A model generated the notes under the pieces. It was not told where the DNA came from, searched no databases, and saw nothing but the letters and a program-made list of their open reading frames with translations. A stretch of DNA of 64,000 bases from Schmidtea nova (Eukaryota). Location of the stretch: NCBI GenBank assembly GCA_044892505.1, contig CM097882.1:368652001-368716000 (forward strand), read 5' to 3'. Position numbers and translations under genes: made by a program. Below are positions 15,508-63,999 of the stretch, in pieces (positions within the stretch are counted from its first letter, which is position 1; each line of letters opens with the position of its first letter).

Positions 15508-15719
15508 TGTTGGGTTGTATGGGTGTTGTTATAAAATATACAACCCAGAGCCCATAATAAATATTACACTCCAACACTCGTGTGCCAATAGCTTTTCCCT
15601 AACTGACTAGGGTGGTACTATACACGGTGGCGAGAATCTAGTGAGCAGGTGAGCTTCATTGCCCAAACTACTCACTATATTCTTTCTTTGGGGTTCCTGC
15701 TGCCGATAGAAGGACTTAC
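15508..15719 (+). ncRNA. Conserved structured motif, copy 1 (most diverged), class unknown
   Basis: Shares TTCCCTA, TGGTACT, GCAGGTGAGC, AACTAC and GCTGCCGATAGAAGG.CTTAC with copies at 26961 and 50082. Stems TAGTGAG/CTCACTA and CGTGTG/TACACG. Confidence 0.5.
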
Positions 15720-26960: not shown

Positions 26961-27219
26961 TGCTGGGTTTATGGGTGGGCTTTTAAACGATTAATAATAA
27001 ATAATTAAATAAATAAGAATAAATAAGAATATTAGGGATGCCTCACTCATAACCATACATAAAAACAAATCGTCTCACTCGCGTGCCCCTAACTATTCCC
27101 TATCTAGCTAGGTTGGAACTGCGCGCGGTATTTGAAAATGATGGGCAGGTGATCTTCATCGCTGGAACTACTTCCCATTTATTTTCACGGGTTCTCGCTG
27201 CCGCTAGAATGTCTTACGC
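26961..27219 (+). ncRNA. Conserved structured motif, copy 2
   Basis: Stems CGCGTGC/GCGCGCG (27080-27086 / 27121-27127) and CCTAACTA/TAGCTAGG with loop TTCCCTATC. Confidence 0.55.
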
Positions 27220-28564: not shown

Positions 28565-29856
28565 CGTGGTGCGGTCAAAAAGTTTCCGGCCTACCCTACT
28601 TAACAAATTAATTTTTAATAGAAATAGGTTTATTTTATTGGAAATTTATTGACAATTTCATGTTGAAAATCTTATTGACCTAATCCATTTACTTTATCGG
28701 TTGCAGATGGAAATGTCGTTGCAAGTGCATTCACTGGGAAAAATTGAGTATCCCAGTGCTATTCGCTTTTGTGTTCTTCTCGGCCAAACCAACCAGGAAA
28801 TCATGGCAAATCTGAATCGAGCCTATGGCGAAAAGTGTCCCTCTCAGTCTATATCAAGTTTTGGATTGCTGAATTCAAACGGAGTTGGCAAAGTGAGTCA
28901 GATGAGGAACGAGAGGGGTGATCAACGACTTCGATAAATGAAGATGTGAAGTAAAAATTGGAGAAAAGGGTACTGGAAGATCGCCGTATAATTACCAGGC
29001 AGCTTGAAGAATCCCTACAAATATCAGACGGCACCGTAGTGCAATTATTGAAAGACCTTAACTTCAACAAAGTGGTGTCTCGCTTTGTACCTCGCTTTTT
29101 GACAACTGAGATGTGCAATAATCGAAAGAATGCGTGTCTAATGAACCTCGCCATTTACCGCAAGTATGGAAAAAGATTTATCCAAAACATCCTCACTGTT
29201 GATGAGACACCGTTGCCCCTACATCAGCCTGAATCAAAGCGCGAGTCTATGGAATTGAGAAAGCCGGAAGAACTAAAAGTTTGGAAGTCTCGTTTCGGAA
29301 TGTCGCACATACGGGAACTCATGTTGATTGTGTTTTGGAGTCATAAGGGAGTGATCCTTACCGACTTTCTTGAGAAGGACGGACAATCAGCGGAGAATAT
29401 TACGGTAATCTCGTTGAGCAAGCTCGTTGAAAGTGCCGAAAACCATATGGTCTCCCTCACTGGTTTGAACATGACAATGAGCCAGTTCACACCAGCCGCA
29501 TTGCCCAAGCAAAGCTCAATGACTGTGGCTTCGAAATCATTAGCCACCCTCCATACAGCCCTGATTTGGCTCCCTCAGATTACTGCCTATTTACGGTATT
29601 GAAGAAGCAACTGTGGGGACAGTATTTCATGGATGCATGCGATTTAGAGGAGGCTGTAAATCGGATTTTTGTCCAGCTTCCACCCTCATTTTACCATGGG
29701 GCATTCAAAGCCCTCCCTTGTCGTTGGCAGAAGTGTCTCGATGCCGGATGTAATTGGTTCGAGAAGTAATGGTATTGGTGTTGATAAAAATATAGTTGTG
29801 ATTTCTTGCTTTTACTTTTTTCTGGGGTAGGCCGGAAACCTTTTGACCGTACCACG
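28565..29856 (+). mobile_element. Mariner (DD34D) transposon, 1292 bp, frameshifted
   Basis: TIRs CGTGGTGCGGTCAAAAAGTTTCCGGCC / inverse, TA TSD on both sides. Motifs ILTVDET, LIVFWS and HPPYSPDLAPSDY. Confidence 0.94.
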
Positions 29857-35479: not shown

Positions 35480-38334
35480 TCTCCCCGTGATTTTCGTCTT
35501 CGTTCACGTTAAAACTTGTTTCAAAATCATCAAGGTATCGAGGTCTTCTGGTCCTGACTCTAAGTTCATCTAGGCGCAAGTAGTCTAATGTTGGATTATC
35601 AACGCTTGTTAGTCCTTCATCGTTGTTGTTATCCACTGACACTTCGTTGACAGCAGGTCGTATATCAAAATAGTGGCGCGGTATCCCGTTGATTTCGAAG
35701 TTGGTCGATGAATTTACCTTGGTTACACTCCCCTCACCCATGTTGAGGTGCATTTCGCATTTGGTGGTTTAACGTAAACTGCATCGCCAACTTGGAACGA
35801 AGTATACTGTGTCTTCCCTTCTGTATTACGTGCGCCATCTCCTTTCTACCAATATGAAAACACGGGAGAGGATGGAGGCGTTTTGAATTTTTCATTAGGT
35901 GCTAGGTTGTACCAGTATACCATGTCCAATACTCCCTTGTTGGTTCTGGCTGACATACGTTTAATAGTATGATGGTTCCGTTCTATTATACCGTTCCCGG
36001 AAGGCCTATAAGCACATCGAAACACACATTTTACACCCCATTTGTAGCACAGTGCTTTCATTTGTGTTGACCGAAATGAAGACGCATTGTCGATCACCAG
36101 TTCATCAGTTGAACCTCGTTCTCTGAAGATCTGTTCAAGGTTCCGTGTAATGGTCTCCGCATCTTCACTTCTTATTTCCCTCCACAGAGCGAAACGACTC
36201 GGTCCACAATCAATCACAGTCAAATAAAGCTTACTTAAATAGTGTGTAACATCCATAGCCAGTCTCTTCCATGTCTCCTTAACGCTCAACTCTCCATGCT
36301 CCCATTTAACAGGCGCTGGATCGATAGATTGACACTCTACACATTTACCTATTATTATCTTAACATTCTCAAGCGTAACGTCCGGACAAAGTTGCTTTGC
36401 AAAATACAACGTCTTCTTGGCTCCAAAATGATGCTGTCTGTGACTTTCTCGTACCACTTCGCTCATAACAGCAACGGTGCTTACAGTTGGTTCATCACAC
36501 GATTTAACCCAAGTCAGCTATTTGTTACTGACTCTTGTGAGTACATCTGCTTTGTTTTTATCTGTCGGAACAAACTCAACCGAGATCGTTAAGTCATAAC
36601 TCTTTCGTAATTCACAGATAATCTGCAGACGTCTTCGTACTAGCATTTCAGCAATTCCATGAGTTCGGATTCTAGCAGTATCCGTTAAAACTGAATCTAT
36701 CCAACTCCTAACGGTATCGGAATCTGTTATTACAACTAAGTTGCTTCTTTCCCAGCTGATGGCTAAGTTAATTCCCTTTATCACTGCATCCAGCTCTGCA
36801 AGGTTTATATGAGCAAAATCGTTTTTCTTCCTCATCCATGATGCATCTTCGACGATTTTACCTGATATTTCAAACACCACTCCTAATGCCAGATTACTTG
36901 CATCGCACCAGAGTATTGTAGATCCTTCTTTGTTTACGTGCCCCTCACCAGACACCGGATCACTTTCTTTCACACGATACATCATTTCGTCGACCATTCT
37001 TAGCGCGATCTTTCCAATCGAGTCATCCCACTTACTCCCAGCACTGTGTCGTTTTATATAGCTACTCGATACTCTCAACCATCCAGCAACTGGATAGTGC
37101 CCAAAGAGTTGACCGCAGAGTGAAAATAACTCCCTTCTTGACATGTCTGTAAACTCGCTGTCTGGCAAAATGTATCCACGGTGCCACGTACGACCGTTAA
37201 TACTCGTTTGAAGCTGGAGACCTAGCACTCTTGCATTATAAAACTCTTTCGGTGACTTTGTAATTAGCCCGTATGTTGCCAAATGGCTTATTACTTCATT
37301 GACGTTTATTCTCGACTGGTCGACAATAATGTCGTCAATATAACTGTCTGTTGCTTTCCTGATGTCTTCTCTTAAACGTAATACCTTTCGTACTATTGTT
37401 GACATTATTTTTGGAGCCACATTTAAACCAAAACCGAGTCTCGTTAGAAAGTATCCGTTCCCTTTGAAACTAACCCTTTGATGCTCCCATAGCTCTTTTT
37501 CCACATGGATCTGAAGATAAGCATTTTTAAGATCAATTAATATAACCTGTTCGCCCATCATTCGCCATCACCTTAATGATTCGCCACATACGTCACTTTG
37601 TTCATTATGACTACTAACATATTTATTTAGTTCCCGAAAATTCATTACCGGGCGAACTTTTCCTTTGTTTATTTGCTCTACTGCTAATAACGGGATTTTT
37701 CCATACGCGACGTCTTTCGTTGGAATTAGCCATCCTTCTTGAATCCACCGTTCAACCTCCGTATCAAACTTGATCTGTAGCCCTGGATCGATTTTGTAAT
37801 TTGAAATTCTATTCAATAGTACAACTGGTTCTGCTTTCCATTTCCACTTCACGGTCCACTTGCTATCAATGAATACTGCTGAAAAATCACCATCTTCAAT
37901 TCGCACATTTTCATTTGACTGATCCAACATCTCAGCCACGCACGATACATCTGCAATACCTGGAAAAGATACACCAGTCTTGTCAATTTAAGACCACCAA
38001 GCATCCCTATTACGTCCATTCCTAAAATCATGTCAACATTTAGTGGTAGATTCAACAACGAGACACAATCAACACTCAATAATTTACCACCAACAATCAG
38101 TTGAACTTTCACATCACGCATACACTTGACTAGTGATCCATCCGCAGTCATGATACTCCCATTCCGCATAAATCGATTCTTCGCAATTCTGGCTGACACG
38201 ACTGATTTGGAACATCCCGAGTCGATCAATGCTTTCACGGACTCCCCATTGGTCATGACAGAAATAAACTAAAGCGCCATTATATTCGTGCTGGAGTAGA
38301 CGCTGGCGCAAGCGTTACTCCTTTTCGGTTTCCC
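35475..38334 (-). pseudogene. pol: pol of element C with premature stops
   Basis: ALIDSGC, LIDLKNAY, YIDDI, WCDASN, HINLAEL, LAMDVTH, IDNASS and GIIER. GGGAAAC slippery site at 38328-38334. Confidence 0.9.
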
Positions 38335-38972
38335 GACTCTGAATTTTTGGTACACTCCTTTGCAATGTGGCCCTTTTCTTCACACCGCCTACACTTCTTT
38401 CCTTGTTTCTTAAAGCAACGTCCTTGTATATGGCCATTCTTTCCGCAATACAAACATTTCTTATACTTGTCTTATTTTCCCACAACAGCCGAACATAGTT
38501 CCATAGTGTCGCAGTTTACTAAAACTCGGGACTGTTTCAAAACATCAACAAGAGACATCTGCTGAATTTTGGCATTGGATCGTAACTGTTGTGACGTTGC
38601 TGTTGGCAAACCCATAATGAATGCGCTTTTTATTAAAATCTCATTGTTTATCTTGGCCAATGATGCTAAGTTTTTGAGATCATTCAAATATACATCGACT
38701 GGCTCATTGCACCACTTTCGTTCACGGAATTGGTCATATGCTTGGAACATATCTATGGAATAGACATCGATTAGAGCATGTTCGATCTTCAATGCGTTGC
38801 CCTTGTCTTCCGCACTCAAATACTGATATACAGCGAAAGCTGGCCCATCTAGGTATAATGGAATAAATGATTCTAAACCTGCGATTTTCTGAATTTTTAC
38901 CACTAGCTTCACTTTTTGAATCCACTGTTGAACATCGCCTTCTCCTCTGAAAATTGGGATCATCTTGTCCAT
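38275..38972 (-). pseudogene. gag: gag of element C (stop at 38472 before the two CCHC knuckles)
   Basis: ORF 38472-38972 continues after the TAA into CLYCGKNGH...C and CRRCEEKGHIAKEC. Confidence 0.85.
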
Positions 38973-38976
38973 TATT

Positions 38977-38988
38977 GCCGCGATAGCT
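38977..38988 (-). promoter_or_regulatory. Non-canonical PBS-position sequence AGCTATCGCGGC (element C)
   Basis: Directly after the 5' LTR end. Identical to element B although the two LTRs are unrelated in length and sequence. Confidence 0.65.
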
Positions 38989-39075
38989 TGTTGTTTCTAT
39001 AAAGACAAGAAAATCACGCTTTATTTTAAAAATCTATTATACTCAAATTTCTGCGTATTCAAACAAATTTTTACA
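38989..39075 (-). repeat. 5' LTR of element C (87 bp)
   Basis: Direct repeat of 35393-35479. Confidence 0.9.
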
Positions 39076-50081: not shown

Positions 50082-50349
50082 TGCTGGGATTATGGGAGGG
50101 TTTCAAGTAATTCAAATAAATTATTAATCATTAATTGAACGACTATTGATGAGTACGTATACTAGGGATTCCACGCCCATAACCATACATAACATGACTA
50201 CTACACGCGTATGCCCTTGACTATTCCCTACTAGTCAAGTTGGTACTGCATACGGTGGTGGAAAAATGATGGGCAGGTGAGCTTTGTTGCCAAAACTACT
50301 CCCCATTTATCTTCCCTCGGGTCCTTGCTGCCGATAGAAGGTCTTACGC
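50082..50349 (+). ncRNA. Conserved structured motif, copy 3
   Basis: Perfect stems CGTATGC/GCATACG (50208-50214 / 50248-50254) and CTTGACTA/TAGTCAAG (50216-50223 / 50232-50239). Loop TTCCCTAC. Confidence 0.55.
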
Positions 50350-50620
50350 ATTTTCATTCTATGGATGTTCGCCCTACTGAATTTTTTTATCACACGCCTT
50401 TCCCAATGACTTTCCTTAATTTATCTACAATGTAATTAATCAGTCCCTGCGTATAAATGGTCGGTTTGAGAAAATTTCGGGTGCGATTTTTTTATTTCGA
50501 TGATTTCATTGTTGTTATTTTATTTTATTTAGTAACATCCCCCGATGAGAGACAAAATTTACACAGAAATACTTTTATTAAAATACTAAAAACAGGATTG
50601 TTATTTTACATGGATGTTTC

Positions 50621-51205
50621 CTAAGCGAATTCCAGACTAATCTCCTGAATCAATTCCGCTTCGGTTAAGGAGTTCAAGTGGTGGATTTGTTCGTCCAGAC
50701 GCTTCGCAAATTCTCGGCGACGACGACGCTGTCGCGATCCCATTCGATGTTTTCGAAGCTGTTGGGTTATGACCGGTGCTGACGCTATTGTTCTCGGGGG
50801 ATCACTGAGAAAAATAGGCAAATCTTCCGTTGTAAGAGAGGGGGCCAGGATGATTCCCTCTTCCGTCCCGCAAGCGACATCTTGGTGAGTGCATTGTATC
50901 CAGCGCTGAGCCGTGATCGGCCGGATTAGCGCTCGCAATTCGGAGTCGATGTAACTTCTTGTTACTGCATTTAGGCAATTTCGGAGTTCTCGCTGGACGG
51001 CATCTAGTTCCAATTTGGTTGCAGCCAGTGCTTCCTGCATTCGCTCAAGTTTTTTCGACTGGTCCTTCATTTGTTCGGGCGAGAACCACTTCGCTCTCAA
51101 TTCATCATTGGCGACCGTGAGTCGCTTGATCTGTCGCTGCTGGTCCCTCAACTTCCTCTCTTGGATTTGTCCCATGATTTTCTTGGAATTTTCTGAAGTC
51201 GGCAT
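50621..51205 (-). CDS. 194-aa ORF inside the LTR: coiled coil, Arg-rich motif, Leu-rich tail
   Basis: Intact ORF with elevated GC. RMGSRQRRRRREF. TTCAG 5 nt before the ATG. Confidence 0.6.
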   Translation of the reverse strand: MPTSENSKKIMGQIQERKLRDQQRQIKRLTVANDELRAKWFSPEQMKDQSKKLERMQEALAATKLELDAVQRELRNCLNAVTRSYIDSELRALIRPITAQRWIQCTHQDVACGTEEGIILAPSLTTEDLPIFLSDPPRTIASAPVITQQLRKHRMGSRQRRRRREFAKRLDEQIHHLNSLTEAELIQEISLEFA

Positions 51206-51523
51206 GTTATCTGAATATTATAACGATAAATTCGCTGGAGGACCTATCAACAATTCTATTTTATTTAGTCTACTATTTACTATTGTTAAACGAGATGCAT
51301 ATTAATGTTTTTAATTATTGAGTTCTCTACAAAATTATTTAACTATCTAATCATTGAAGACTCAAAAGATTTATTGAACTAATTTTATATTAATAAATGA
51401 ATTTCCTAATGACTATAACAACTACAATACTAAATCTACATGACAACACTATTAACAAAATGAGACACTTCCGAATTTTTAAAACATTTATTAAATTCAA
51501 AAAACAGGCGGCCATTGATTCCG

Positions 51524-51991
51524 CTATTCATCTTCGGTCATTTTTCCTCGATATGAAAATATCGATCTGATTTGCAAATTTGTGTTGATATTGGACGAGG
51601 CCTGCTGAAAACGGATCCTCTCAGCTTCCCGAAGGGGTCGTATTGCTGTATTGAACTTGAACCCCAATTCCTTGAAGGTAGAGGCTGGAATGAACCCCCA
51701 ATATATCACACATTTCGGGAATCCTCCCTTATCCAACATCAGGACGAACCAGGCGGCGTGCCATGATTCGAATTCCTCGTCTGGAATGATTGGCCAACTA
51801 GCGCATCCCCGGTACCATACGTGATGCCGTGGATGGTCCCATACTGTAAAGGGACAGGCGGTTTCAAGCTCTCGGCGCCATGCCCACATTTTTTGATGGA
51901 TTTGCTGTAAAATCTCGAAAGGAGCCGGCTTTAATGGGCTAACTCGGGCTCGTTCTTGTCGTTTTTTGATAGTGTATCTATGCTTAGTCAT
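51524..51991 (-). CDS. 155-aa Trp/aromatic-rich ORF inside the LTR, function unknown
   Basis: Intact ORF with elevated GC in an AT-rich context. TTCAG 15 nt before the ATG. Confidence 0.55.
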   Translation of the reverse strand: MTKHRYTIKKRQERARVSPLKPAPFEILQQIHQKMWAWRRELETACPFTVWDHPRHHVWYRGCASWPIIPDEEFESWHAAWFVLMLDKGGFPKCVIYWGFIPASTFKELGFKFNTAIRPLREAERIRFQQASSNINTNLQIRSIFSYRGKMTEDE

Positions 51992-52250
51992 GATTCCAAA
52001 ACGATGCTGAATTTTATAATAGTTACAATTTACATCAATAATTAATTATAGTAAATGTTATCTCTCATCGTGATACCCTTATTATTTGCCTTCCCCTTAG
52101 ACCTTAGCTGAAATCACGAGAAACTGTCGTTCGCTATGGTATGCATTACTCTCGTATCTACTTAGCTTTATCTGTTTACGATCACTATTATAGTTGAAAA
52201 AAAAAAAAAAATGGTGATTTGTCTGCTTGGATTTTCAAAATATTGATACC

Positions 52251-53531: not shown

Positions 53532-54104
53532 TTACACAAGCTCTTTGATTTCATGATTGGTATTGGATTGGATTGGGGTTCTTTCGCTGATTGTTCGTAG
53601 TTCGTAGTGGCTTTGGATTCGGTTTAGGTGTTTTCTCATTCGCTTTTGGGTTCTGATGTCTTGTATTGTTGTTCGATTCAGGATGACATGTTTTTGTTTT
53701 AAGATCTTCACTCGGTATGATGTTATGAGGATTGTGATCGCGATAATGGTCACGCTGAGTGCAAGGATTATTATAATTGCGATGATCCATTTTTCTTGAT
53801 ATTCTATCTCTGCTTGGGCTAAGCTTTTTATGGGTTCTCGACCTTCTTTTAGGGTTTTTCTGATTGTTTTCAATTTGATTCGATGTTCATATAGGACCTG
53901 TTGAAATTTTTCATCGTTTGGGTTGTCTGATGTTATCTGTTGAAGTTGGGTGATTTCTTGTGTTGCTTCGCTGATTAGTTTATCTAGTTCTTGATAGGTT
54001 TTCTCGGGTAGGGCTCGTAGCTCCTTCTCTGTGAGTTGAAGATCTTCTCTTTGTAGGGTGATTGTTATTAGGTATAGGAATATCGGTATTCTGAGCTTTT
54101 TCAT
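53532..54104 (-). CDS. Cargo ORF4: 190-aa predicted type-I membrane protein with a luminal coiled coil
   Basis: Hydrophobic N-terminus, heptad-rich middle, WIIAIIIILALSVTIIAITILITSY transmembrane segment and a basic tail. Confidence 0.75.
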   Translation of the reverse strand: MKKLRIPIFLYLITITLQREDLQLTEKELRALPEKTYQELDKLISEATQEITQLQQITSDNPNDEKFQQVLYEHRIKLKTIRKTLKEGREPIKSLAQAEIEYQEKWIIAIIIILALSVTIIAITILITSYRVKILKQKHVILNRTTIQDIRTQKRMRKHLNRIQSHYELRTISERTPIQSNTNHEIKELV

Positions 54105-54186
54105 ACTGTTTTCTTTACAGATAGGTCAATACAATTTGACACTACATTTCATACAATTATTTACAAAATTATATTTTCCGCTTTAT

Positions 54187-55248
54187 TTACACAATCGTCT
54201 CGTTTGGTTCGTAGAAACCTTCGTCCTGAGGCTCTACTTGGTTCGTGGGGAGTGGTATCCAAACAACCCTGCTCCTCCACATTTCGACTTCATCTCGATA
54301 CATGTGAGATATCTGGATCTCCTCGTCTAGCAAATATTCTAGGTAATTTGCTTGTTCTGTTAATGTTTCTATTTGTTCCTCTAATTCGATTACTTTTGTC
54401 TTTTGTTCGTCTTCTTTTATCATTTTTGTTACGGCTGCCGTTATACTTGCTTCTTTGGGTATTACTGATACTGTTACTCGTTTCTGTTTCAATTCTTCGT
54501 TTTCTTTCATCAAATTCGTTAAATTTTCCTCATAACTTTGCTTCGCTTCCTTTAACCTTTCTCTGGTTCTTTTTAGCTCTATTTTCCTCTGGGTAATCAC
54601 TCCTTGATAACCATTTATATCTCTCTTCATCTCTTCTTCTTTCTGATTCCATATTCCGGTGAGCATAGATTTCAGTTGTTCTTGATTAGCTAGTTCTTCT
54701 CCCATTCTTTGAACTTGATAGGTTAGTCCTTTAATTTTCTTTGCTTGTTCGCGGATAAATTGCTGTCTTTTTGTATTCCATCTTTTATTTAACACTTCCT
54801 GGTTGATTTTTTGCTCTAACTCGTCTTTTAGTTCATCGATCTCTTTATATAACTTCCAGTCATCACTATAAGCTGTCCTTTCTATTATTTCTCTAGCTTT
54901 TTCGTAAGATTCTTTCGCTTCTTTCTTCCAGTATCTTGCTTGTTCTGTAATCGAATACATCTTGTGTTCAGCTTCCATCTGCTGTCTGTCTCTTTCCTCT
55001 CGTCGCTCTTTCATCATTCTCTGGTAATATTCCTTTTGTTGTTGTAGCATTTTGTATACTTCTTCTATTTTTTCTCGACTTCTTTGACTTGATCTTTCCG
55101 CTTCTTTTAATAATTCGGCTTGTCTCTCTATCTCCTCTTGCTTTCCATAATATGCATTGACCCATATTTCAATCTGTTCTAGATGATCGCTAATCGCTTC
55201 TGCTTGATGCATCGTAATTTCCTGTAAGCATACCTCGATATTTCCCAT
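54187..55248 (-). CDS. Cargo ORF3: 353-aa long coiled-coil protein ending ETIV
   Basis: Intact E/K/R/Q-rich ORF. Confidence 0.8.
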   Translation of the reverse strand: MGNIEVCLQEITMHQAEAISDHLEQIEIWVNAYYGKQEEIERQAELLKEAERSSQRSREKIEEVYKMLQQQKEYYQRMMKERREERDRQQMEAEHKMYSITEQARYWKKEAKESYEKAREIIERTAYSDDWKLYKEIDELKDELEQKINQEVLNKRWNTKRQQFIREQAKKIKGLTYQVQRMGEELANQEQLKSMLTGIWNQKEEEMKRDINGYQGVITQRKIELKRTRERLKEAKQSYEENLTNLMKENEELKQKRVTVSVIPKEASITAAVTKMIKEDEQKTKVIELEEQIETLTEQANYLEYLLDEEIQISHMYRDEVEMWRSRVVWIPLPTNQVEPQDEGFYEPNETIV

Positions 55249-55362
55249 TGCTATAATTACAGAATGAAAATTTTAATCGGTTTATATATCAGTTATTTTT
55301 GTTTATATAATAATTTTTTGGGTATTTAACTGTACATATTATTTACATGATCACTTCTCTTG

Positions 55363-56745
55363 TTACGTCAACCATCCTTTTCTATCTGCTTTCTCATTCC
55401 TTTCCATTTCTATGTATAGGGTGTCTGCATATAATCGTTCCCATAGGCTTTCTTTCGTTATAAACATCGGTTCTCCCGCTGCTAATCCACATTCTGTGGT
55501 TGGTTTCTCGCTCGTACTCGCATGTTTCTCTGTCTCAAAGAATTTTTCTACTGGTTTTGTTACACTTCTGATTCTTACAATGACTCCTACTTTCAAGGGC
55601 CATTCTACTAGGTCGTCGTATTCTCCTTTACATAGCGAGAAAAATATTGACACATGTGTTCCTCGTCCTCTTCCGTCTCCATTTGGGTATAGCTTCAATC
55701 TCACTTTAGCTCCGTTTCTCCATAAATAAAATGGTGGGCTTATTACTGCTGTTTTCGTCATATTTCGGGCCTCTGTTAATTTGTTTCTAAAATCTGTCAC
55801 TTTCCACACATATGGTGCGATTGGTAGCTTTTCCTCGGTATCCTGGGTGAGTTTGTTGTACTGGATTTTCATTCCTTTAGCCAATTCTTCGATAGCTTTT
55901 ATCTTTTCCTCCATCTTTTCTCGTGTTAGTTCGAATTGCTCTCTGGTTTCCAACAGTAGGTTTACCATTATCTTGTGTGACTCTATTTCTCTTTCTAATT
56001 TTTTGATTGTTTGTTCGGTTTCTTTTGTTGTTTCGTTTGTCATTTCCGCATGCTTTAGCAATGCTTCCTCCAGATGTTGTTTCATGGTTTGTTGCGTTCT
56101 TTTCTCCATACATCCCTGTTTGTTATAAGGACATTCCCTTGGTTTCTCCGTGCACACTTTCCAATGTTCTTGTAATTTTACTTCTACCGTTATTTCGCAT
56201 TCGTTTGAACATATTCCTACATATTGTCTACATACTTTCTCCTCTTTTACATTCAGGTGTTCTTCTTCGATCTTTCTCCTCGTTTCTCGAGCTCCACAAT
56301 ATTCGCATAGACTTTCCTCTTCTTTACATTCATCTTTGTGCTGCTCTTTATTCTTTATAGTTATTTTTTGTTGGCATTTGTTACATTCAGTTCTCTTCTC
56401 TTCGCAGTTCTCCAGATGGTTCTCGAGATCGCGTATTTGTCCTTGCCATATACATGGTTGATTTATACATTCGGTTTTCGTGTTCATGATTTCTCTCTGA
56501 GTTGCTCTATCTGGTCCGGTTTCTTCGAATTTTATTTGTCCTTCTTTGCATTCTGGACATTCTGGTGGTCTTTTCATACTTAACTCGTGTATGCATTTGG
56601 TACATACTCTGCATCCGCATAGGGTTTGTCTTGGTTTCAATATTATGTTTTTACAATTTACACAAGTGAGTCTCTGACTCCATTTCCTGTTCTCGGCTCT
56701 CAAAATTTCGATTATCCGCTCTTCGGCTTTTCCTTCTGTATTCAT
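55363..56745 (-). CDS. Cargo ORF2: full-length TRAF-family protein (RING, TRAF zinc fingers, coiled coil, MATH)
   Basis: CVNC...CGCRVC..C...CPEC RING. Repeated C..C...H...C fingers. YVWKVTDF...SPPFY...KVRLKLYPNGDG.G.GTHVSIFF...GEYDDLVEWP MATH domain. Confidence 0.93.
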   Translation of the reverse strand: MNTEGKAEERIIEILRAENRKWSQRLTCVNCKNIILKPRQTLCGCRVCTKCIHELSMKRPPECPECKEGQIKFEETGPDRATQREIMNTKTECINQPCIWQGQIRDLENHLENCEEKRTECNKCQQKITIKNKEQHKDECKEEESLCEYCGARETRRKIEEEHLNVKEEKVCRQYVGICSNECEITVEVKLQEHWKVCTEKPRECPYNKQGCMEKRTQQTMKQHLEEALLKHAEMTNETTKETEQTIKKLEREIESHKIMVNLLLETREQFELTREKMEEKIKAIEELAKGMKIQYNKLTQDTEEKLPIAPYVWKVTDFRNKLTEARNMTKTAVISPPFYLWRNGAKVRLKLYPNGDGRGRGTHVSIFFSLCKGEYDDLVEWPLKVGVIVRIRSVTKPVEKFFETEKHASTSEKPTTECGLAAGEPMFITKESLWERLYADTLYIEMERNEKADRKGWLT

Positions 56746-56836: not shown

Positions 56837-57193
56837 CTACGGCTCGTTTGTTGAATCTGGTTCTGGGTCATTTTCTGATCTGTTTATTGCCCAATTTGTC
56901 CATCCATCCTCTGCTTCTTCTGTCTCTCCCATTGTTAAACGGTCTATCTCTATTGCTTGTCTCTGATTTATGTCGCTCATCACTTGATTCTCTCTGGTAA
57001 GTTGCGTTATCAATCTCTGTTGCTCCTCGATTCTGTGGAGTTGTTCAAAACTATTATTATAACTTTCGGATAACAAATTCTGTTTCTCAATTAACTGATT
57101 TTGTAGTGAGTTGATTGTTCGTATTAACATGTCACACTGGGCTTTCCATCGCATAGCCATAGTAGTTTCTGCTATTTCTTCCTGTTCGTTCAT
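56837..57193 (-). CDS. Cargo ORF1: 118-aa coiled-coil protein with an acidic tail
   Basis: Intact Q/E-rich heptad ORF, co-oriented with its neighbours. Confidence 0.7.
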   Translation of the reverse strand: MNEQEEIAETTMAMRWKAQCDMLIRTINSLQNQLIEKQNLLSESYNNSFEQLHRIEEQQRLITQLTRENQVMSDINQRQAIEIDRLTMGETEEAEDGWTNWAINRSENDPEPDSTNEP

Positions 57194-57318
57194 TTTCTAA
57201 ATTATATACATTAATCGTTTTCTCGATTTCTCTTTTTATATTTTTATAATATCGATACCCATACTATTACGGTAATGCATTGTTATTTACACTATTATTT
57301 ACAGTCATATCCCGCCTC

Positions 57319-60300
57319 CTATATCACCATCACTGTCTTTCCTTCGTATCGCTCTTCATCTTCTATTTGTCTCCAAAATTCTTTACCTTTCGTCCTCCTT
57401 TGGAATTCTTTATGTACTTCTTCCGGTAATTCTATACTGTAGTTCATAATCTTTATATCTGGCCAATGTGTTATTGGTTTCTTGTTGAATACATCATATA
57501 TCCATATTATTAATAATACTGTTATTACTGGAATAGTTGCTGCTAGTATTCTTAGACCAATTAGTTCTCTAACTTGTTTGTTTACGTCCATCTTCGTAAT
57601 TTCACTCTGGTTAATCATTGGTCCGTATTGTCCCTTTAGTTTATTTAGTAGTTGTTCTCGTTCTTGTTGTTTTCTTTTAACTTCTTTAATTACTTCTTCC
57701 GGCGTCCATCTTGCGTAAGGGTCTATTACTACTTGTTCTGCGTCCATTCGTTTCGTTGTCTGACTTAATTCTTTAAATTCGAGTTTTCTCACTTTCCCTT
57801 TGGACGTTGAGTTTACCGGTGTGTAGTACGTTTCGCATCTTTCCTGCTGATTTCCCAATATGTCCGTCTTTTCTACCGCACATATCTCGTATTCTCTATT
57901 AAATTTCAGATTTTTGATACTCATTTCTTCTTTTCCTTTTATGTTTTCGCAGTATCGTGGCTGTCTTTCTTTTTGTTCCTGAACTACTGCCCAACATATT
58001 TCTAACGTTTTATTGTCTATTCTCCATAGTATAAGAGTTGTTGTAGTATTCTTTTCGGTTTTTCTTTGTATTTCTTGGTTTTTCTGTTGTCCATTAGGTT
58101 TAAAGGTAGTGGTATACCTCGCTTTTCCTTTGTTCCGTTGTCTTCTACTTTTTCGCGTTGTCTTTCCAACTCTTGTTCTGGTGGGTGTTTTATATAATTT
58201 GCATTCCAATTCATTTACTGTTATTTTGTCGCTCTTCCTGATCAGGCATATTTCGTACGTTTGATTACTTTCTAACCCTTCTATCTGTATTGTGGTTGTT
58301 CCTCTGTTTGTTCGACATTGCGGCGGTGTATTCTGGTTTGTTTTCTTTTCCTGCTTCTTCCAGCATACGCCTTTGACGTCCGGTTCTATTCCGGTTAACT
58401 CTAACATTATAGTTGTTCTCCGTTTGGTGCGTTTATTTCTTCTTCCTCGTCGTATGAACTTTATTGTTTCCCCAGGTTGAAATGTTTTACAACTTGTCGT
58501 TCCTTTCTTGTGTCTTTCTTTTTCTAGTAAACATAGTTCATACGTCCTGTCTGCTTTTACTTCTGATATCTTGGTTACTTTATTTGTTTTCCTTTTCCGA
58601 CTCGTCTTTATTTCGCTTACGCCAATTTCTTCGTTGCTTCTGGCCCAACACTTTGGGTTGGTGTTTTGGGTGTCGTTCATCTCTGTTACTGCCATTGTGT
58701 CAATGTCTATCCCTTCTTCTAACCGTTTTAACATTGTTAATAAGAGTGCTAAACATAGTAATTCTGTTTGGTAGGTCACTCTTTCGGTCTCGTTTGTGGT
58801 TACTCTTGCTTCGGGCCTGTCTATGGTAATTTGTATAGTTGGCGTTGTTCGTCTGTCTATTGTCTGGGGTTTTTTGTTTTTTGTTCCTTGGGTCTCTGTT
58901 TTTCCACACTTTCCTACGACGTAGTCTCCTTTGGATGTCTGCTGTACTGTTATGGTTACTTTGGGTGTTAGGTAGTTTGCACATGCGATTGTGTTGTGTG
59001 ATCTTGGATTCTTTTGTTTTCTGATGGTGCATATTTTGTACCAAGTATCTAGCTCTAAGTCATCGATCTCTATGATTTCTTGTTCATATTCTGAGATCCT
59101 GCAATCCATTGGACTATTTTGTCCCGATATTTTGTCCTTTTTTGACCAACATACTCGTTCGATTCCTTTTGCGTTTCCAATTTGTATTGTCGCTCTTTCT
59201 TCACATATCATTCCTTGAGTTGGACTAATTAAGGTCATGATTACCGTTAGTAATAATAGTTCTGGTTTAAAGAATGGGTTTATTGTTTGTTTGTAGCCTG
59301 TTCTTTTTGCTTCGTTTTTATTTTTATAGTTGTTGTTTCTTTGTTTCCCAAATTCATTTTTCTTATCATTTTTCTCTGTGTCCCTTCCTTTCTCTTCACT
59401 GTCCTCTTCATCTAATAACTCATGATCCTCTGGATTTTCTCGAGTACTATCGTCGTCGTTTCCTGTATTGTCGCCTCCCCTTTGGTCGTTGAAAATGTCG
59501 TCCTCGACATTAATTGCTTCTATCATTTTTTCATACGTTATGGTTGTGAGTATACTTGCTTCATATTCTTGTGTTACTGCCTGCTTAGGTATTTCCTTAT
59601 CGGTTAATTTACAATCTAGAATCTCTTTCTTGGCTTTTATCCAATTATTAAGGTACGTTTTCATTAGTTCTTTCCATTTGTCCGTACGTTCTGTTTCCTT
59701 TGGGTTGTTTGTGAATCGTAAATCTTTTCTTCTCATGAAGATATCTATTATCTTTGGCCATTTGTTTATTATTAATGCACACTTTATATACAAATTTTGG
59801 CCTTGTTCCATGCACTCGTTGATCCTGAATGCTGGTTCATTGGTGTTTGGGTTCATCCAATTGAGTATTGCTTCAGTTAGTTCAGCGTTATGCATCATGG
59901 AATGTACGCTAGCTTTTTTAACTGTCCTTGTAAGGTATTCTATTTCCTCCTGATTTGTGATTGTTTTTATAAAATTTATCACTTCCCAATTGTGCGTTAA
60001 CAACGCTACGTCTAGTATTGAGCTGTCTTTGTTCGTTCTTCCCATGAGTCTTGCACCTGCTTCGTACAGTTCCTGTAACACTCGGGTTTTTGTGTTCGCT
60101 CTTGCTGCGAATATCATGAGGGTATCTCCCTTTTTATCTTTCATGTTCATGTCACTTCCGCAATCTTGCATCAACCGTGCAATTTCGACTACCCTCCTAT
60201 CTTTTCCTGCTCGTAAGGCTCTATGTATTGGCAATACTCCATTCTTTGTTAATAAGAAAGTCACTGGCATTTCTCTTTTTATGATCATCATATCGTTTTC

Positions 60301-63300
60301 ATTGTAAGTTCCTTCCGCATATGCGTGTACCTTTTCCACAATTGCTCCGAGTATCTCCAGTGTATGTTTAGAATTTTCGAATTCTGGTAATAGTTCTTTT
60401 GCTTTGTCCTGTATCGCATCTAACCTTTCTTGATATGGTACCTCTGCGCTGAAAAGTGGTGTAAATTTCCTTTTGCTTTCTCTTTCCTTTTGACATAGGA
60501 ATTGTTTGCATTTTTCGGGGTGGTTTAATGTGTCTATTAGTTTGTCATACTCCTCCTCCACCGTTTTATATTTGTCTTGAAAATTGGATATATCTTTGTA
60601 AGTTATCGTCTTGGTTAGCGATTTTGCACACCATTCCCTAATTTTCCTGAATAATGCTTCTTTTTCATTTTCGAATTTACACTCCTCTTTGTTTTTGGAA
60701 ATTATGATATTTCTTCTGTCTAATAACGTTAACAGTGTTTTCTGGTCACAAACTAATTTTAATAGGAATTGTAATAACGCGTTTTGTCCTTTACTGTATA
60801 CTTCGTTTATATTTAATACCCATGTATCATTTTCGGATCTTTTCCATTTTATTAGCTTGCGTATTGTTTTGCAGTTACCGATTTTTATTGCCTCCTTGAT
60901 TATATCACCTTTGATCAGTTCGTCTATTTCCCAAGTGGCCTTCTCGATTATTTGTTTGAGCATTATCTGATTTGAGCTCCATATTGCGTGATTCAAGACT
61001 GTTTTGTTTTCTCTATCGCGTTCCGTCCAGTTGAAATCGGCATTTATCAAAAGGTCTATTATTGCTTTATCCGATTTGTAGATGGCTGCTACCATTAATG
61101 GTGTTTCTTGTTCGCTATTCCCAAAACCAAGGTGTTGGTTTGTTTCCTTAGCGATTTTTAGAAATTCTTTTACTCTTTCTACTTCTCCCCATTTTATGGC
61201 GTTATGTAATGCTGGTTGTCCTCCTATGTCTTGTAGTGAAAGTATTTCTGGAATTTTCTCCAGTAGTTCTGAAACGACTGGTTTTGTTGGTAGTCCCCTT
61301 GCGTAATCACTAATTATCGACTGAATGTCTCTTAATATATCGTCTCTGACATGCCATTTTCCCATTATTTCTCTGGCTTTTAGTACAATTTCCTTGTTTC
61401 TTTTTTCTTGTTGATTGTTTTCTGCTTCTGTACTTTCATTGGTTGCTCTGAGCATATTCATTCTGGCTGTCTGGGATCTGGTTATTATTCGTTCTTCTGG
61501 CGCTGTGGTTATTGTCTTTGGTACTTTTTTGCATCTGCATGTATTAACGTATATTGGTCGTATCAATGGTCGATTAACAAGTTTTACCTTCACATTGTTT
61601 TCCTTTTTGTATATAACTTCGTAAGGGCCTTTTCCTGGTCTTTGTAGTTTTTTAACGGTTCCTAGTATTATTTCTGGGGTTTCTATCATTACCCAATCTC
61701 CGGGTTTAAGATCATTTGTTTTAACATTTTTCTTTTGATCGTGTAGGTCCTTGTAACTTTCTTGATAAAACTTTATGTTTAGTTCTGCTGTCTTCCATAT
61801 CTCTTGCATTCGTTCTTTGAATTTGGTGACGTAATCATCTTCCTCCATATATTGAGACAAGGGTGGTTGATATTCAAGATCTATTGGCATATTGCATTCC
61901 CTTCCATACATTAATTGAAATGGACTCAATTTTGTTGCTGCGTGTATCGACATTCGGTATGCTATTAGACATAGCTTTATGTACTCATCCCAATCTGTTT
62001 GGTGTTTGCTTACATAATTGGATAACATTCGAATCAATGTGCCGTTAAATCTTTCCGTTTGTCCATTGGTTTGCGGATGATATGGTGACGTTCGTAATTT
62101 GGCTATTCTGAAGTAATTTGTTACTTCATCTAATATTTCACTCATAAAATTTGTCCCTTGATCTGTCAGTATTTGTTTCGGGGTTCCGTATCGACAACAT
62201 ATTTCCTCTACTAAAATTCTTGCTACGGTCTTTGCTTTTTGATCCGGCATCGCAAATGCTTCAGGGAATTTAGTCAAATAATCCGTTATTACCAATATAT
62301 ATTGATTCCCGTTTAAACTTTCTGGCAATGGTCCTATTACATCCATCGCAATGGTAGTCATTGGTTCCGCTGGTATTGGCATGGGTTTTAAGGGATTTTT
62401 CCATTTCTTCCCACTATCCTTTCTTGTGGCACAAGTTAAACAGTTCTTTATCCATTCCTTTACGTCTTCGTCCATTGTTGGCCAATAATATTTTTGTCTC
62501 ATGCGATCTAATGTTTTCTTATCGGACATGTGTCCTCCCAACTTTCCGTCGTGGTATTGAGTTATTATCTCTTTTCGTCTATTACCTGGCAGACACATTA
62601 ATCGTTTTTCTCCATCCTGTATTAATAACCATCCTTTTTCTATTGTGTATCGATGTTGGTATTTCCTCATGTGTTCTTTTAACTCCGCATTGTCTTTGAA
62701 TACATCCATATTCCGTGAGCTTAGGAATTCTATGATGGGTCTTAGTTCTTTATCCTCTTGCTGATCTTTCTTTAACTCGCTGAAATCCAAATCCTCTGCT
62801 ATCATTATGCATATTCTTTGCACTTCTGGGTCTGTTAATTCTGGAAACGTTAATCTTGACATGCAATCTGCGTTGGCATTCGCTTTTCCTGATTTGAATT
62901 TTATATCTGGTGAATATTCTTGTAATTGCATCGCCCATCTCATTAATCTGCTGGATGTTTCCTTATGTTGTCCTAGCCATACCAGTGGTTGATGATCCGT
63001 GGTTATGCATATAATGTGTCCCCATAATAGATATTTAAAGTGTTTTATTGCTAATATTATTGCCAATGCTTCTCTCTCCGTTACTGAATAATTCTTCTCG
63101 TGTTTCTTGAATGTTCTGCTATAATATCCGATCACTCGTTCTTTACCTTCGTCATCATATTGTCCTAACACTGCTCCTGCTGCATATCCACTTGCGTCAG
63201 TCGCGAGTAAGAACGGCTTCTTGAAATTCGGGTGAACCAATATTGGTGCAGTTATTAGCTTATCTCTCAATGTTTCAAAGGCTGTTTGTTGTTCGCTTCC

Positions 63301-63999
63301 CCATATGAACGATACGTCTTTCTTTACTAGCTCCTGGATTGGTTTTGCAATTCCTGCGTAATCCTTTATGAATTTTCTATAGTAACCGCATAATCCGAGA
63401 AATTCTTGGATCTGCGTTATAGTCTTTGGTATTGGACATTCTTTTACTTTATCAATGTTTCTGGGATCCGGTTCCTTTCCTTTTGCGGACACAATATGTC
63501 CTAAGAATGTCACTTTCTCTTTTGCCCAATCACATTTCGATGGTTTGAGCTTGAGTTTCCATTGTCTCAATCTCACAAATACATCTCTGATATCTTGGAT
63601 GTGTTGTTCAAATGTGCCTGAATATATTAACAGATCGTCGATGTAAACCATGCATTGTTTTATGCCGTGGGTGACAAAATTCATACATCTTTGAAATGAT
63701 GCTGGCGCATTGGTTAGTCCAAATGGCATTTTCCTAAATTGGTACAAGTCTCTTCCGATAGTGAAAGCAGTTTTCTCTTTGTCTTCCTCCTTCATTTTAA
63801 TTTGCCAGTATCCGCTTTTCAAATCCAATGATGTAAAATATGCCGCTCCTTGTAATGTCAATAACATCTCGTTGATGTCCGGTAATGGGTAGGTATCCCT
63901 TTTTGTAACTGCATTTAATCTCCGATAATCAATACAAAATCGTTGTGTTCCGTCTTTCTTTTTCACCATTACAACTGGGAATTGCCACGGTGAGCAGCT
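57319..63999 (-). CDS. pol: Pol (RT, RNase H, integrase, GPY/F) fused in frame to ankyrin repeats and a signal / FN3-like / TM module; open beyond the window edge
   Basis: MPFGL, YIDD, LATDAS, HHCC, AMDVIG, TDQG, QTER and GPY (about 64000-61600). Ankyrin motifs GQPALHNA, ETPLMVAA, LPIHRA and DTLMIFAA (about 61225-59950). Hydrophobic signal at 59212-59265. Four CW...L....YEIC...C repeats. TM at 57497-57565. No stop over 2216+ codons. Confidence 0.92.
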   Translation of the reverse strand, partial: SCSPWQFPVVMVKKKDGTQRFCIDYRRLNAVTKRDTYPLPDINEMLLTLQGAAYFTSLDLKSGYWQIKMKEEDKEKTAFTIGRDLYQFRKMPFGLTNAPASFQRCMNFVTHGIKQCMVYIDDLLIYSGTFEQHIQDIRDVFVRLRQWKLKLKPSKCDWAKEKVTFLGHIVSAKGKEPDPRNIDKVKECPIPKTITQIQEFLGLCGYYRKFIKDYAGIAKPIQELVKKDVSFIWGSEQQTAFETLRDKLITAPILVHPNFKKPFLLATDASGYAAGAVLGQYDDEGKERVIGYYSRTFKKHEKNYSVTEREALAIILAIKHFKYLLWGHIICITTDHQPLVWLGQHKETSSRLMRWAMQLQEYSPDIKFKSGKANANADCMSRLTFPELTDPEVQRICIMIAEDLDFSELKKDQQEDKELRPIIEFLSSRNMDVFKDNAELKEHMRKYQHRYTIEKGWLLIQDGEKRLMCLPGNRRKEIITQYHDGKLGGHMSDKKTLDRMRQKYYWPTMDEDVKEWIKNCLTCATRKDSGKKWKNPLKPMPIPAEPMTTIAMDVIGPLPESLNGNQYILVITDYLTKFPEAFAMPDQKAKTVARILVEEICCRYGTPKQILTDQGTNFMSEILDEVTNYFRIAKLRTSPYHPQTNGQTERFNGTLIRMLSNYVSKHQTDWDEYIKLCLIAYRMSIHAATKLSPFQLMYGRECNMPIDLEYQPPLSQYMEEDDYVTKFKERMQEIWKTAELNIKFYQESYKDLHDQKKNVKTNDLKPGDWVMIETPEIILGTVKKLQRPGKGPYEVIYKKENNVKVKLVNRPLIRPIYVNTCRCKKVPKTITTAPEERIITRSQTARMNMLRATNESTEAENNQQEKRNKEIVLKAREIMGKWHVRDDILRDIQSIISDYARGLPTKPVVSELLEKIPEILSLQDIGGQPALHNAIKWGEVERVKEFLKIAKETNQHLGFGNSEQETPLMVAAIYKSDKAIIDLLINADFNWTERDRENKTVLNHAIWSSNQIMLKQIIEKATWEIDELIKGDIIKEAIKIGNCKTIRKLIKWKRSENDTWVLNINEVYSKGQNALLQFLLKLVCDQKTLLTLLDRRNIIISKNKEECKFENEKEALFRKIREWCAKSLTKTITYKDISNFQDKYKTVEEEYDKLIDTLNHPEKCKQFLCQKERESKRKFTPLFSAEVPYQERLDAIQDKAKELLPEFENSKHTLEILGAIVEKVHAYAEGTYNENDMMIIKREMPVTFLLTKNGVLPIHRALRAGKDRRVVEIARLMQDCGSDMNMKDKKGDTLMIFAARANTKTRVLQELYEAGARLMGRTNKDSSILDVALLTHNWEVINFIKTITNQEEIEYLTRTVKKASVHSMMHNAELTEAILNWMNPNTNEPAFRINECMEQGQNLYIKCALIINKWPKIIDIFMRRKDLRFTNNPKETERTDKWKELMKTYLNNWIKAKKEILDCKLTDKEIPKQAVTQEYEASILTTITYEKMIEAINVEDDIFNDQRGGDNTGNDDDSTRENPEDHELLDEEDSEEKGRDTEKNDKKNEFGKQRNNNYKNKNEAKRTGYKQTINPFFKPELLLLTVIMTLISPTQGMICEERATIQIGNAKGIERVCWSKKDKISGQNSPMDCRISEYEQEIIEIDDLELDTWYKICTIRKQKNPRSHNTIACANYLTPKVTITVQQTSKGDYVVGKCGKTETQGTKNKKPQTIDRRTTPTIQITIDRPEARVTTNETERVTYQTELLCLALLLTMLKRLEEGIDIDTMAVTEMNDTQNTNPKCWARSNEEIGVSEIKTSRKRKTNKVTKISEVKADRTYELCLLEKERHKKGTTSCKTFQPGETIKFIRRGRRNKRTKRRTTIMLELTGIEPDVKGVCWKKQEKKTNQNTPPQCRTNRGTTTIQIEGLESNQTYEICLIRKSDKITVNELECKLYKTPTRTRVGKTTRKSRRQRNKGKARYTTTFKPNGQQKNQEIQRKTEKNTTTTLILWRIDNKTLEICWAVVQEQKERQPRYCENIKGKEEMSIKNLKFNREYEICAVEKTDILGNQQERCETYYTPVNSTSKGKVRKLEFKELSQTTKRMDAEQVVIDPYARWTPEEVIKEVKRKQQEREQLLNKLKGQYGPMINQSEITKMDVNKQVRELIGLRILAATIPVITVLLIIWIYDVFNKKPITHWPDIKIMNYSIELPEEVHKEFQRRTKGKEFWRQIEDEERYEGKTVMVI

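Follow-up and report, generated by a model that had tools for sequence, protein, structure and literature searches.

An ankyrin module that looks host-derived, duplicated in tandem behind the integrase of a Burro-like gypsy element in Schmidtea nova

In the present study, a stretch of 64,000 nucleotides of Schmidtea nova DNA (hereafter, the window) was found to carry part of a gypsy-type element in which genuine ankyrin repeats share the reading frame of the integrase. The two ankyrin clusters are one module of approximately 235 aa, consisting of a helical cap and five repeat positions, which occurs twice in tandem. Similar elements with ankyrin repeats are already known, and the module looks borrowed from the brake that the host applies to immune signalling. 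We tentatively interpret the ankyrin region as a protease-released, degron-less IkB-like protein, a reading to which we give a little under an even chance.

Results

The polyprotein reading frame (Table 1) displayed the domain order RT-RNase H-integrase-ANK-ANK-acidic linker-signal-ectodomain-TM, and the window ends inside the RT of the element. Across positions 59400-61500 this frame contained 0 stops, against 77 and 41 in the remaining two minus frames, and Pfam Ank_2 matched the whole ORF in two stretches (E 5e-14), which bore out the proposal of the initial annotation that two ankyrin clusters lie in the Pol frame. The order RT-RNase H-integrase in Pol is that of Ty3/gypsy LTR retrotransposons, and the top PDB match of one Pol relative was Ty3 Gag-Pol. 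The homology of the window Pol to its relatives stopped near aa 828-860, and the reading frame extended 1400 aa past the integrase, into a predicted membrane protein. No chromodomain match was obtained in the window ORF (E <= 1) or among the precomputed domains of 20 relatives, and Pfam gave no BIR match in the visible part of the element. LTR candidates were a TG-start at approximately 53330 and, at approximately 50082, a near-inverted end; the segment 50082-50378 matched two more sites of the window, and no second LTR was in view within it.

Table 1. Features of the element in the window, with positions counted from the first nucleotide of the window
Feature	Residues (aa)	Positions	Strand	Evidence or remarks
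Polyprotein ORF		57319..63999	(-)	2226 aa visible, stop-free; 5' end beyond the window edge
Reverse transcriptase	12-170	63490..63966	(-)	Pfam RVT_1, E 6e-37
RNase H	258-362	62914..63228	(-)	Pfam RT_RNaseH, E 1e-38
Integrase: zinc finger, core, GPY/F-type C-terminal domain	to ~828	61516..62589	(-)	Pfam Integrase_H2C2, rve
Candidate protease junction after integrase	843-849	61453..61473	(-)	Weak motif score
Ankyrin module 1	874-1105	60685..61380	(-)	Cap; repeats from aa 926, 964, 998, 1031, 1071
Helical spacer between modules	1106-1198	60406..60684	(-)	Low-confidence model
Ankyrin module 2	1199-1434	59698..60405	(-)	Repeats at aa 1254, 1291, 1325, 1360, 1400
Acidic low-complexity linker	1496-1540	59380..59514	(-)	19 D/E in 45 aa
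Internal signal-peptide-like segment	1580-1597	59209..59262	(-)	Moderately hydrophobic; stronger in relatives at the same place
Ectodomain, four Cys-rich repeats		57814..59202	(-)	Alignment; weakly fibronectin type III-like
Transmembrane helix and short tail	2151-2167	57499..57549	(-)	Hydropathy
Full-length TRAF, separate intronless ORF		55363..56745	(-)	RING, zinc fingers, coiled coil, MATH; Pfam MATH, zf-TRAF

In the RT-RNase H tree, the window and 20 relatives fell on one side of a branch with 99/98 support, opposite 10 outgroup rows. The RT branch of the window was long (0.81 versus a median of 0.12), and the tree supports the side of the clade and not the position inside the group. PF24664 was present in 13 of the 20 Pol relatives and lay upstream of PR in 8 of the 12 scanned; in placing a mononegavirus-type fusion protein ahead of the protease, the nearest relatives follow the Burro pattern. 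Judged from its Pol sequence, the element belongs with the giant gypsy elements that are Burro-like and bear env. A hydrophobic segment followed the integrase in 19/20 close Pol relatives, with at least two segments in 14/20, and nine had an extra Asp-protease domain after the integrase. The ankyrin module was present in the Pol frame of two (P0083 and P0096) and absent from the other 18, a patchy distribution on the RT tree, and the slot behind the integrase held proteases or Ig domains or was empty. The clade carries a variable cassette between the integrase and the C-terminal membrane protein. Two Cordylochernes gene models that combine ankyrin repeats with Pol (P0071 and P0119) either belonged to the outgroup or contained two Pol copies; they look like merged models and were set aside.

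Module 1 scanned alone with Pfam reached 44 bits (E 3e-11), above the cut-off of 27.3, whereas module 2 reached 23 bits (E 1e-4) and stayed under it; module 2 matched ankyrin-1/2 in the PDB at E 3e-20. The two modules were collinear across 238 aa at 18% identity (E 2e-8), and no DNA-level similarity between them remained. They aligned over five repeat positions, three of which were canonical, and the fourth and fifth repeats of module 1 were degenerate; the ankyrin consensus and the repeat spacing were preserved in both copies. The first repeats began at 61224 and 60240, where the initial annotation had placed the clusters, but the second cluster reached approximately 59700 and not 59950. The helical spacer that it had described could be retained as aa 1106-1198, while the approximately 45 aa cap that precedes each repeat cluster belongs to the module, so that the units begin near 61380 and 60405. 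Its acidic linker was likewise confirmed, starting near 59514 and approximately 60 aa past the last repeat, but the frame continues approximately 690 aa beyond it.

A single-sequence fold of aa 834-1533 had a mean pLDDT of 39.7 and was unusable. The search of aa 860-1500 against proteins of similar length gave 12 matches among 5646 candidates, generic ankyrins throughout, and in the search of aa 834-1533 against 1.84 billion representatives the best 150 of 4179 matches were short ankyrin stretches, with no close orthologue. NCBIfam gave just sub-threshold bacterial ankyrin families, the ankyrin module of the window had no entry in the Atlas, and the PDB matches of the window modules were DARPins and ankyrin-1/2, with no IkB-family chain among the 60 matches listed.

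The module of the relative P0096, used as a query against 1686 candidate proteins of 30-1062 aa, gave 11 matches that were 42-69% identical. One of them, P0284, which we infer to be a host gene, has an N-terminal basic motif and a DSGxxS motif upstream of the repeats, the only DSGxxS among the 11 family proteins scanned; none occurred in the window ORF downstream of the integrase. The DSGxxS degron is a feature of IkB and NF-kB precursor proteins, whose ankyrin domain has six or seven repeats, binds Rel dimers and masks the nuclear localisation signal. The model of P0284 had six repeats and a cap and was confident (pLDDT ~90 over aa 190-400); its C-terminus gave a weak Death match (E 0.055), the domain being folded at low confidence, and no RHD was seen. 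A basic motif, DSGxxS, repeats and a death domain typically follow one another in this order in the C-terminal halves of p105 and p100. One member of the module family thus stands alone and has the layout of the NF-kB precursor's inhibitory half.

The top PDB sequence match of P0284 was Bcl-3 (E 3.5e-9), which was also the best ankyrin match of P0096. By sequence, the closest ankyrin relatives of P0284 and P0096 in the PDB are thus IkB-family proteins, and those of the window's own modules, among the matches listed, are not. Atlas look-alikes of P0284 were ankyrin+death proteins and IkB-alpha; the latter shared the most features (149 of 256), fewer than the 170 typical of same-family matches. 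In the structure search with P0284, IkB-alpha was the top natural chain (Z 22.1) and p100 aligned over aa 137-400 including the cap. IkB-alpha, IkB-beta and Bcl-3 were within 1 Z of gankyrin, ankyrin-B/G and FEM1, and the structure comparison, made with a predicted model, leaves IkB and other ankyrins unseparated. The family profile ranked KIDINS220 above Bcl-3, its second natural match, and Notch directly below Bcl-3, and a second family protein matched generic bacterial ankyrins only. The top viral fold match of the P0284 model was a piece of the planarian secretory cell nidovirus polyprotein (E 7e-9), 5-fold better than the next and with an rmsd of 25.6 over 498 columns, which makes it a lead only. 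A prokaryotic genome scan with P0290 found no relative; with P0293 it returned 19 loci whose matches covered 30-47 residues only, at E-values relative to the candidates of 2e-5 to 1e-3, and these were taken as chance.

A profile built without the window scored the window modules at 48.9 and 43.1 bits, topped by one family member among 282 proteins, and 500 shuffles reached at most 9.8 bits. The window modules were the sole domains among the top 15 profile matches to reach the cap positions, and module 2 exceeded the best generic ankyrin domain by 0.1 bit. Identity to the family was 17-30%, bar one very short match, and the near-invariant motif of the family in the cap and first repeat was eroded in both modules. 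A cap-only profile did not detect the window modules (best score -0.5 bits), and a 71-aa family fragment comprising the cap had no relevant match in the PDB.

The part of the frame behind the acidic linker is a predicted type-I membrane protein, whose ectodomain contains two furin-type sites and N-glycosylation sequons. Its PDB matches were to tenascin FN3 alone (E 0.5-0.7), Pfam fn3 matched one of the four repeats (E 0.14), and no significant match was found to 24 relatives (best domain E 0.22) or to Pfam. In the family, a signal-like segment lay downstream of the module in 6 of 11 proteins (P0083, P0096, P0285, P0287, P0288 and P0291). The MATH domain of the neighbouring TRAF matched TRAF5/3/2 in the PDB, and its RING-zinc finger part matched TRAF6/5/2.

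Discussion

We read the region as a tandemly duplicated ankyrin module, probably of host origin, that occupies the variable cassette of the clade, from the integrase to the C-terminal membrane protein. The aspartic protease of the element very probably cuts just after the integrase, which would make the ankyrin part a separate cytosolic product, either free or kept on the ER through the leftover signal segment. An uncut integrase would be membrane-bound, so that a cut somewhere after the integrase appears to be needed. The candidate junction motif at aa 843-849, trained on 30 linkers of relatives, ranks in the top 0.3% of positions, yet 17% of equal-length windows equal its score. It is also likely that the source of the module, captured without DSGxxS, was an IkB-type host gene or the ankyrin-bearing, inhibitory half of an NF-kB precursor. 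The most uncertain step, proposed by analogy with polydnavirus vankyrins, is that the product would bind Rel dimers of the host and withstand signal-induced degradation; an immune or death response would then be damped in cells expressing the element, in a pathway shared with the TRAF gene nearby. Of the two roles that the initial annotation had proposed, the protease-released IkB-like inhibitor gained real, indirect support from the family of the module (P0284, Bcl-3). Against it stand the weak junction motif, the low identity of the window modules to the family (17-30%) and the tie in structure between IkB and other ankyrins; for planarians, it is also described that homologues of NF-kB were difficult to identify clearly in S. 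mediterranea (PMC13563047).

Its other proposal was that the modules stay fused to the integrase and steer target-site choice. In chromoviruses, the integrase bears a chromodomain after the GPY/F region; the window resembles them in having an extra in-frame domain past this region of a gypsy integrase and differs in lacking a chromodomain match and in the long frame that continues into a membrane protein. In favour of such a tether, the cap starts just approximately 50 aa past the C-terminal domain of the integrase, and no protease domain separates the two. Moreover, the best junction-like motifs after the integrase, at aa 1362 and 1480, lie inside or behind module 2 and score above that at aa 843, so that a cut behind the modules is possible; none was found in the helical spacer. 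However, in P0083 and P0096 the module starts approximately 530 and 380 aa past the integrase C-terminal motif, behind the extra Asp-protease domain, at least four further proteins (P0287, P0288, P0289 and P0291) carry it in an ORF without an integrase match, and the same slot in relatives holds proteases, Ig domains or nothing. We therefore consider a tether unlikely, with a small probability of being correct, and the comparative data indicate that in this clade a domain in frame after the integrase need not be a targeting domain.

A separate product may also have another partner, such as the TRAF of the element, apoptosis regulators, or the membrane protein in its trafficking or assembly. 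Most of the conserved motif of the family is gone from both window copies, the signal-like segment found after the module in 6 of 11 family proteins could hold it at the ER, and several apoptosis and ubiquitin domains are described in Burro elements (PMC6431247). On the other side, nearly all of the 18 Pol relatives that lack the module in the Pol frame have the membrane protein, so that the module is not needed for assembly, and a fixed partner in the host would agree with how strongly the family is conserved between divergent elements and a host-like protein; such a role seems to us rather unlikely. IkB ancestry may hold and yet no longer describe function. More improbable still is a captured module that rides along as a passenger with relaxed constraint, in a frame kept open only since the downstream membrane protein depends on it. 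The strong divergence from the family and between the copies, together with the patchy occurrence, would agree with this, but repeat spacing and ankyrin consensus persist in both copies although no DNA similarity is left, and, given the long RT branch of the window, the divergence may reflect the age or the rate of the lineage.

Among known systems, the element comes closest to Burro and GYPSM1, planarian gypsy elements of giant size whose ankyrin and TRAF domains have been published (PMC6431247). By that description, gypsy Pol lies within a very long polyprotein with ankyrin repeats, and TRAF/MATH is in the polyprotein or an accessory ORF. Burro-like giant elements further have long LTRs, a total size of >25 kb, and gag, env and protease in one ORF of ~5000 aa. 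The window element has the same ankyrin and TRAF/MATH accessory domains; it differs from Burro in its full-length TRAF in a downstream ORF, its two ankyrin modules and the absence of a BIR match in the visible part. Polydnavirus Ank proteins bind Rel dimers (PMC3359993), and vankyrins, as described, resemble the module as degron-less ankyrin stacks in an integrating element with other host-modulating genes (PMC3359993, PMC3757122); DSGxxS is also missing from viral IkB mimics. The vankyrins are stand-alone DNA-virus genes with measured Rel binding, whereas the module is one segment of a retroelement polyprotein and its Rel binding is putative. The ANK domain of the planarian secretory cell nidovirus, reported closest to host RHD-ANK proteins, likewise lies within a viral polyprotein beside membrane segments and was proposed to mimic IkB and to stem from a host RHD-ANK gene, but in an RNA virus without RT and with three repeats (PMC6211748).

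Burro-type ankyrin and TRAF domains were listed years ago, with no position, origin or role given in the available text of PMC6431247, and for one captured Burro1 domain, an IAP, a protective effect on stem cells of the host has since been reported (Lee et al. 2026, cited in PMC13465017). It is possible, if rather doubtful, that an env-bearing gypsy lineage captured the ankyrin half of an NF-kB precursor and dropped the degron, and that this half was here duplicated and paired with a TRAF and a receptor-like membrane protein; this would be a reverse-transcribing element with a multi-level anti-NF-kB kit of the kind found in large DNA viruses. Should the module be a Rel inhibitor of IkB origin, these elements would manipulate the immune signalling of their hosts in the manner of large DNA viruses, which would support the view of them as proviruses. 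The module could then also serve to probe the NF-kB systems of invertebrates, which are divergent.

Results

The initial annotation had placed two clusters of ankyrin repeats behind the integrase in the Pol frame, and Pfam confirmed Ank_2 there in two stretches (E 5e-14) of one stop-free ORF, with the first repeats starting at 61224 (module 1) and 60240 (module 2) as named. When each was scanned alone, module 1 (E 3e-11) lay above the Ank_2 cut-off and module 2 (E 1e-4) below it; a PDB search with module 2 matched ankyrin-1/2 (E 3e-20). The two are duplicate units, each composed of a helical cap and five repeat positions (three canonical, two degenerate). As proteins, the modules align over 238 aa at 18% identity with six gap positions (E 2e-8), and they share no similarity at the DNA level; on this sequence comparison they stem from an old duplication in tandem, repeating every ~325 aa. 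Moreover, the ankyrin region matches RT-RNase H-integrase in base composition and GC3, which indicates that the capture was not recent.

Module 2 is followed in frame by an acidic linker, as initially annotated, a moderately hydrophobic signal-like segment (aa 1580-1597) and four Cys-rich repeats, whose sole PDB matches were weak ones to tenascin FN3 domains (E 0.5-0.7). A transmembrane helix (aa 2151-2167) precedes the stop codon. The Pol frame thus terminates as a predicted membrane protein, which differs from the fusion-type env located upstream of the protease in relatives; comparable signal-ectodomain-TM units, two of them with Ig domains, end the Pol relatives.

Features of the element and its surroundings in the window
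Feature	Position	Strand	Remarks
Pol-frame ORF	63999 to 57319	-	stop-free, 2226 aa, open at window edge
RT	aa 12-170 of Pol-frame ORF	-	Pfam
RNase H	aa 258-362 of Pol-frame ORF	-	Pfam
Integrase zinc finger	aa 471-528 of Pol-frame ORF	-	Pfam
Integrase core	aa 545-642 of Pol-frame ORF	-	Pfam
Predicted type-I membrane protein	57322-59262	-	end of Pol frame; four FN3-like Cys repeats, furin-type sites
TRAF, accessory ORF	55363-56745	-	downstream, same strand as Pol; intact, intronless, full length, with RING and zinc fingers
Five further ORFs	56837-57196, 54187-55272, 53532-54125, 51524-52045, 50621-51217	-	downstream of Pol; 119-361 aa stop to stop
TGTAAATA, six coding-strand copies	57303, 57291, 56818, 55347, 54191, 54165	-	in four short AT-rich spacers between the 3' ORFs
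Dispersed repeat	50082-50378, 26961-27248, 15568-15723		~300 bp, 72% identity
Other gypsy-like elements and mariner-like remnant	3789-8049, 19248-22166, 35846-38996, 28955-29602	+, +, -, +	ORF list, by eye
N-run	about 2300-2600		

A Pfam scan of the five further ORFs gave nothing above cut-off; two are coiled-coil-like, one has a TM segment, and two lie within a stretch of higher GC content, possibly LTR. Across the window there are 18 copies of the octamer TGTAAATA against 7.8 expected, a count reached in 0 of 100 shuffles, and the copies in the spacers may serve as a signal for accessory-gene expression. The dispersed repeat adjoins the presumed 3' end of the element. Judged by eye, the ORF list also contains three other gypsy-like elements, in which Pol is split across several ORFs, and the remnant of a mariner-like transposase.

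Twenty Pol relatives (ENA, JGI or MAG records) were chosen from the best 120 of 5870 Pol matches by top scores over the RT-to-integrase core, where they share 47-52% identity with the window; those ranked next are at 40%. In the tree, the window and these relatives fall on one side of a branch (support 99/98) against 10 outgroup rows, the window being a long branch without placement inside its group. A Monjiviricetes-type fusion domain was found in 13 of the 20, and 8 of the 12 relatives scanned for its position have it upstream of the protease, an arrangement matching the gag-env-pol order of planarian Burro elements (PMC6431247); the ORFs of the other seven start within ~640 aa of RT.

Among relatives, the stretch that follows integrase is a cassette of varying content. 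At least one hydrophobic segment follows integrase in 19 of 20 (two or more in 14), and Ig domains occur in two. Extra Asp-protease (retropepsin) domains are present in nine (P0070, P0073, P0076, P0079, P0083, P0092, P0096, P0102 and P0107), some with further degenerate copies, and a single polyprotein can have as many as three D[TS]G domains. In-frame ankyrin repeats occur in P0083 and P0096 only, behind the protease domain and ~530 and ~380 aa past the integrase C-terminal motif, respectively. Furthermore, the shorter proteins P0287, P0288, P0289 and P0291 carry the module in ORFs without an integrase match, beside a signal-like segment, protease or ubiquitin-like domain; these ORFs may be separate genes or fragments of broken ones, and the contigs of P0288 and P0291 equal in length those of P0064 and P0070, two of the Pol relatives, a hint that they may share contigs.

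When shorter proteins were searched with the P0096 module, 11 of 1686 candidates proved to be relatives (42-69% identity). The profile of the 12 family sequences, which left the window out, scored the window modules at 48.9 bits (positions 6-231) and 43.1 bits (20-236), and the best domain in 280 other proteins, about 160 of them ankyrin proteins chosen for similarity to the window, at 43.0 bits from profile position 47; shuffled sequences reached at most 9.8 bits. A cap-only profile did not detect the window modules, and pairwise identity to the family was 17-30%, except for one 27-aa match. Full-length collinearity, shared clade and shared position make it likely, though not certain, that the window modules belong to this family.

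The stand-alone family member P0284 (552 aa, N-terminus apparently cut off) had no retroelement domain on a domain scan. It starts with a basic motif and has DSGxxS upstream of the repeats; in the predicted model the cap and six repeats fold confidently. An acidic stretch is also present, as is a weak C-terminal match to Death (E 0.055), a domain not resolved in the model. This layout is typical of the C-terminal half of p105/p100. By sequence, Bcl-3 was its first PDB match, with IkB-alpha and IkB-zeta lower, among Notch, ankyrin and DARPin chains; its Atlas neighbours were ankyrin+death proteins and IkB-alpha. By structure, the best natural chain was IkB-alpha (Z 22.1, rmsd 2.5), followed by IkB-beta (21.7) and Bcl-3 (21.4), but gankyrin, ankyrins and FEM1 tie with these; p100 scored 20.1, yet with the cap covered. 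The top viral match in the fold search was a planarian nidovirus polyprotein, with poor geometry; the nidovirus ANK domain was reported to be closest to host RHD-ANK proteins and has been proposed to mimic IkB (PMC6211748). In two short family ORFs matching ends at an identical residue, the pattern expected of host-gene exons. The IkB-like character initially proposed gains indirect support from P0284, but no RHD was seen in that protein, searches with P0292, a shorter family member, returned generic ankyrins only, and for the window's own modules no IkB chain was among the 60 PDB matches listed.

Discussion

That Burro-type elements carry ankyrin and TRAF domains is already known, since PMC6431247 lists ankyrin, MATH/TRAF, BIR and BCL2 motifs for Burro and credits them to Jurka 2007 and Grohme 2018; those descriptions name only the MATH/TRAF-C part, whereas the TRAF here is full length. 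Likewise, DNA viruses and one nidovirus are known to have IkB-like ankyrins. A limited literature check found no paper tying retrotransposon ankyrin repeats to IkB/NF-kB and none describing a module that is present in duplicate between integrase and membrane protein; the accessible sections of PMC8532177, PMC13238120 and PMC11410931 do not mention ankyrin.

The initial annotation had offered two functions, an integrase tether or a protease-released IkB-like inhibitor. A cut after integrase would be needed because the polyprotein ends as a membrane protein. The junction motif, for which 30 linkers from relatives served as the training set in an alignment that was partly out of register, placed the RNase H/integrase linker of the window fourth among about 2220 positions, and weakly supports a candidate site 26 aa past the integrase C-terminal motif (joint 6th, equalled in 17% of equal-length windows). 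Two sites in or behind module 2 score higher, which would suit a tether; however, the module is mobile among relatives, lies behind a protease domain in P0083 and P0096 and occurs outside integrase ORFs, which argues against tethering and leaves it improbable. That the module is a passenger under relaxed constraint is hardly more probable.

A different partner for the ankyrin product is a more serious alternative, although we consider it doubtful. Binding to Rel dimers has been measured for polydnavirus Ank proteins (PMC3359993), and the same binding is proposed for the ankyrin product here. Should the host be a flatworm, its Rel target would be uncertain, because the seven RHD genes of S. mediterranea are divergent and include no clear NF-kB (PMC13563047), and one survey did not find p50/p105 in Platyhelminthes (PMC11432056). 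Tentatively, and at somewhat under even chances for the full chain, we favor a mechanism in which the element's own protease would free integrase from the polyprotein, and the double ankyrin product, either cytosolic or held on the ER, would bind Rel dimers like an IkB that lacks its degron.
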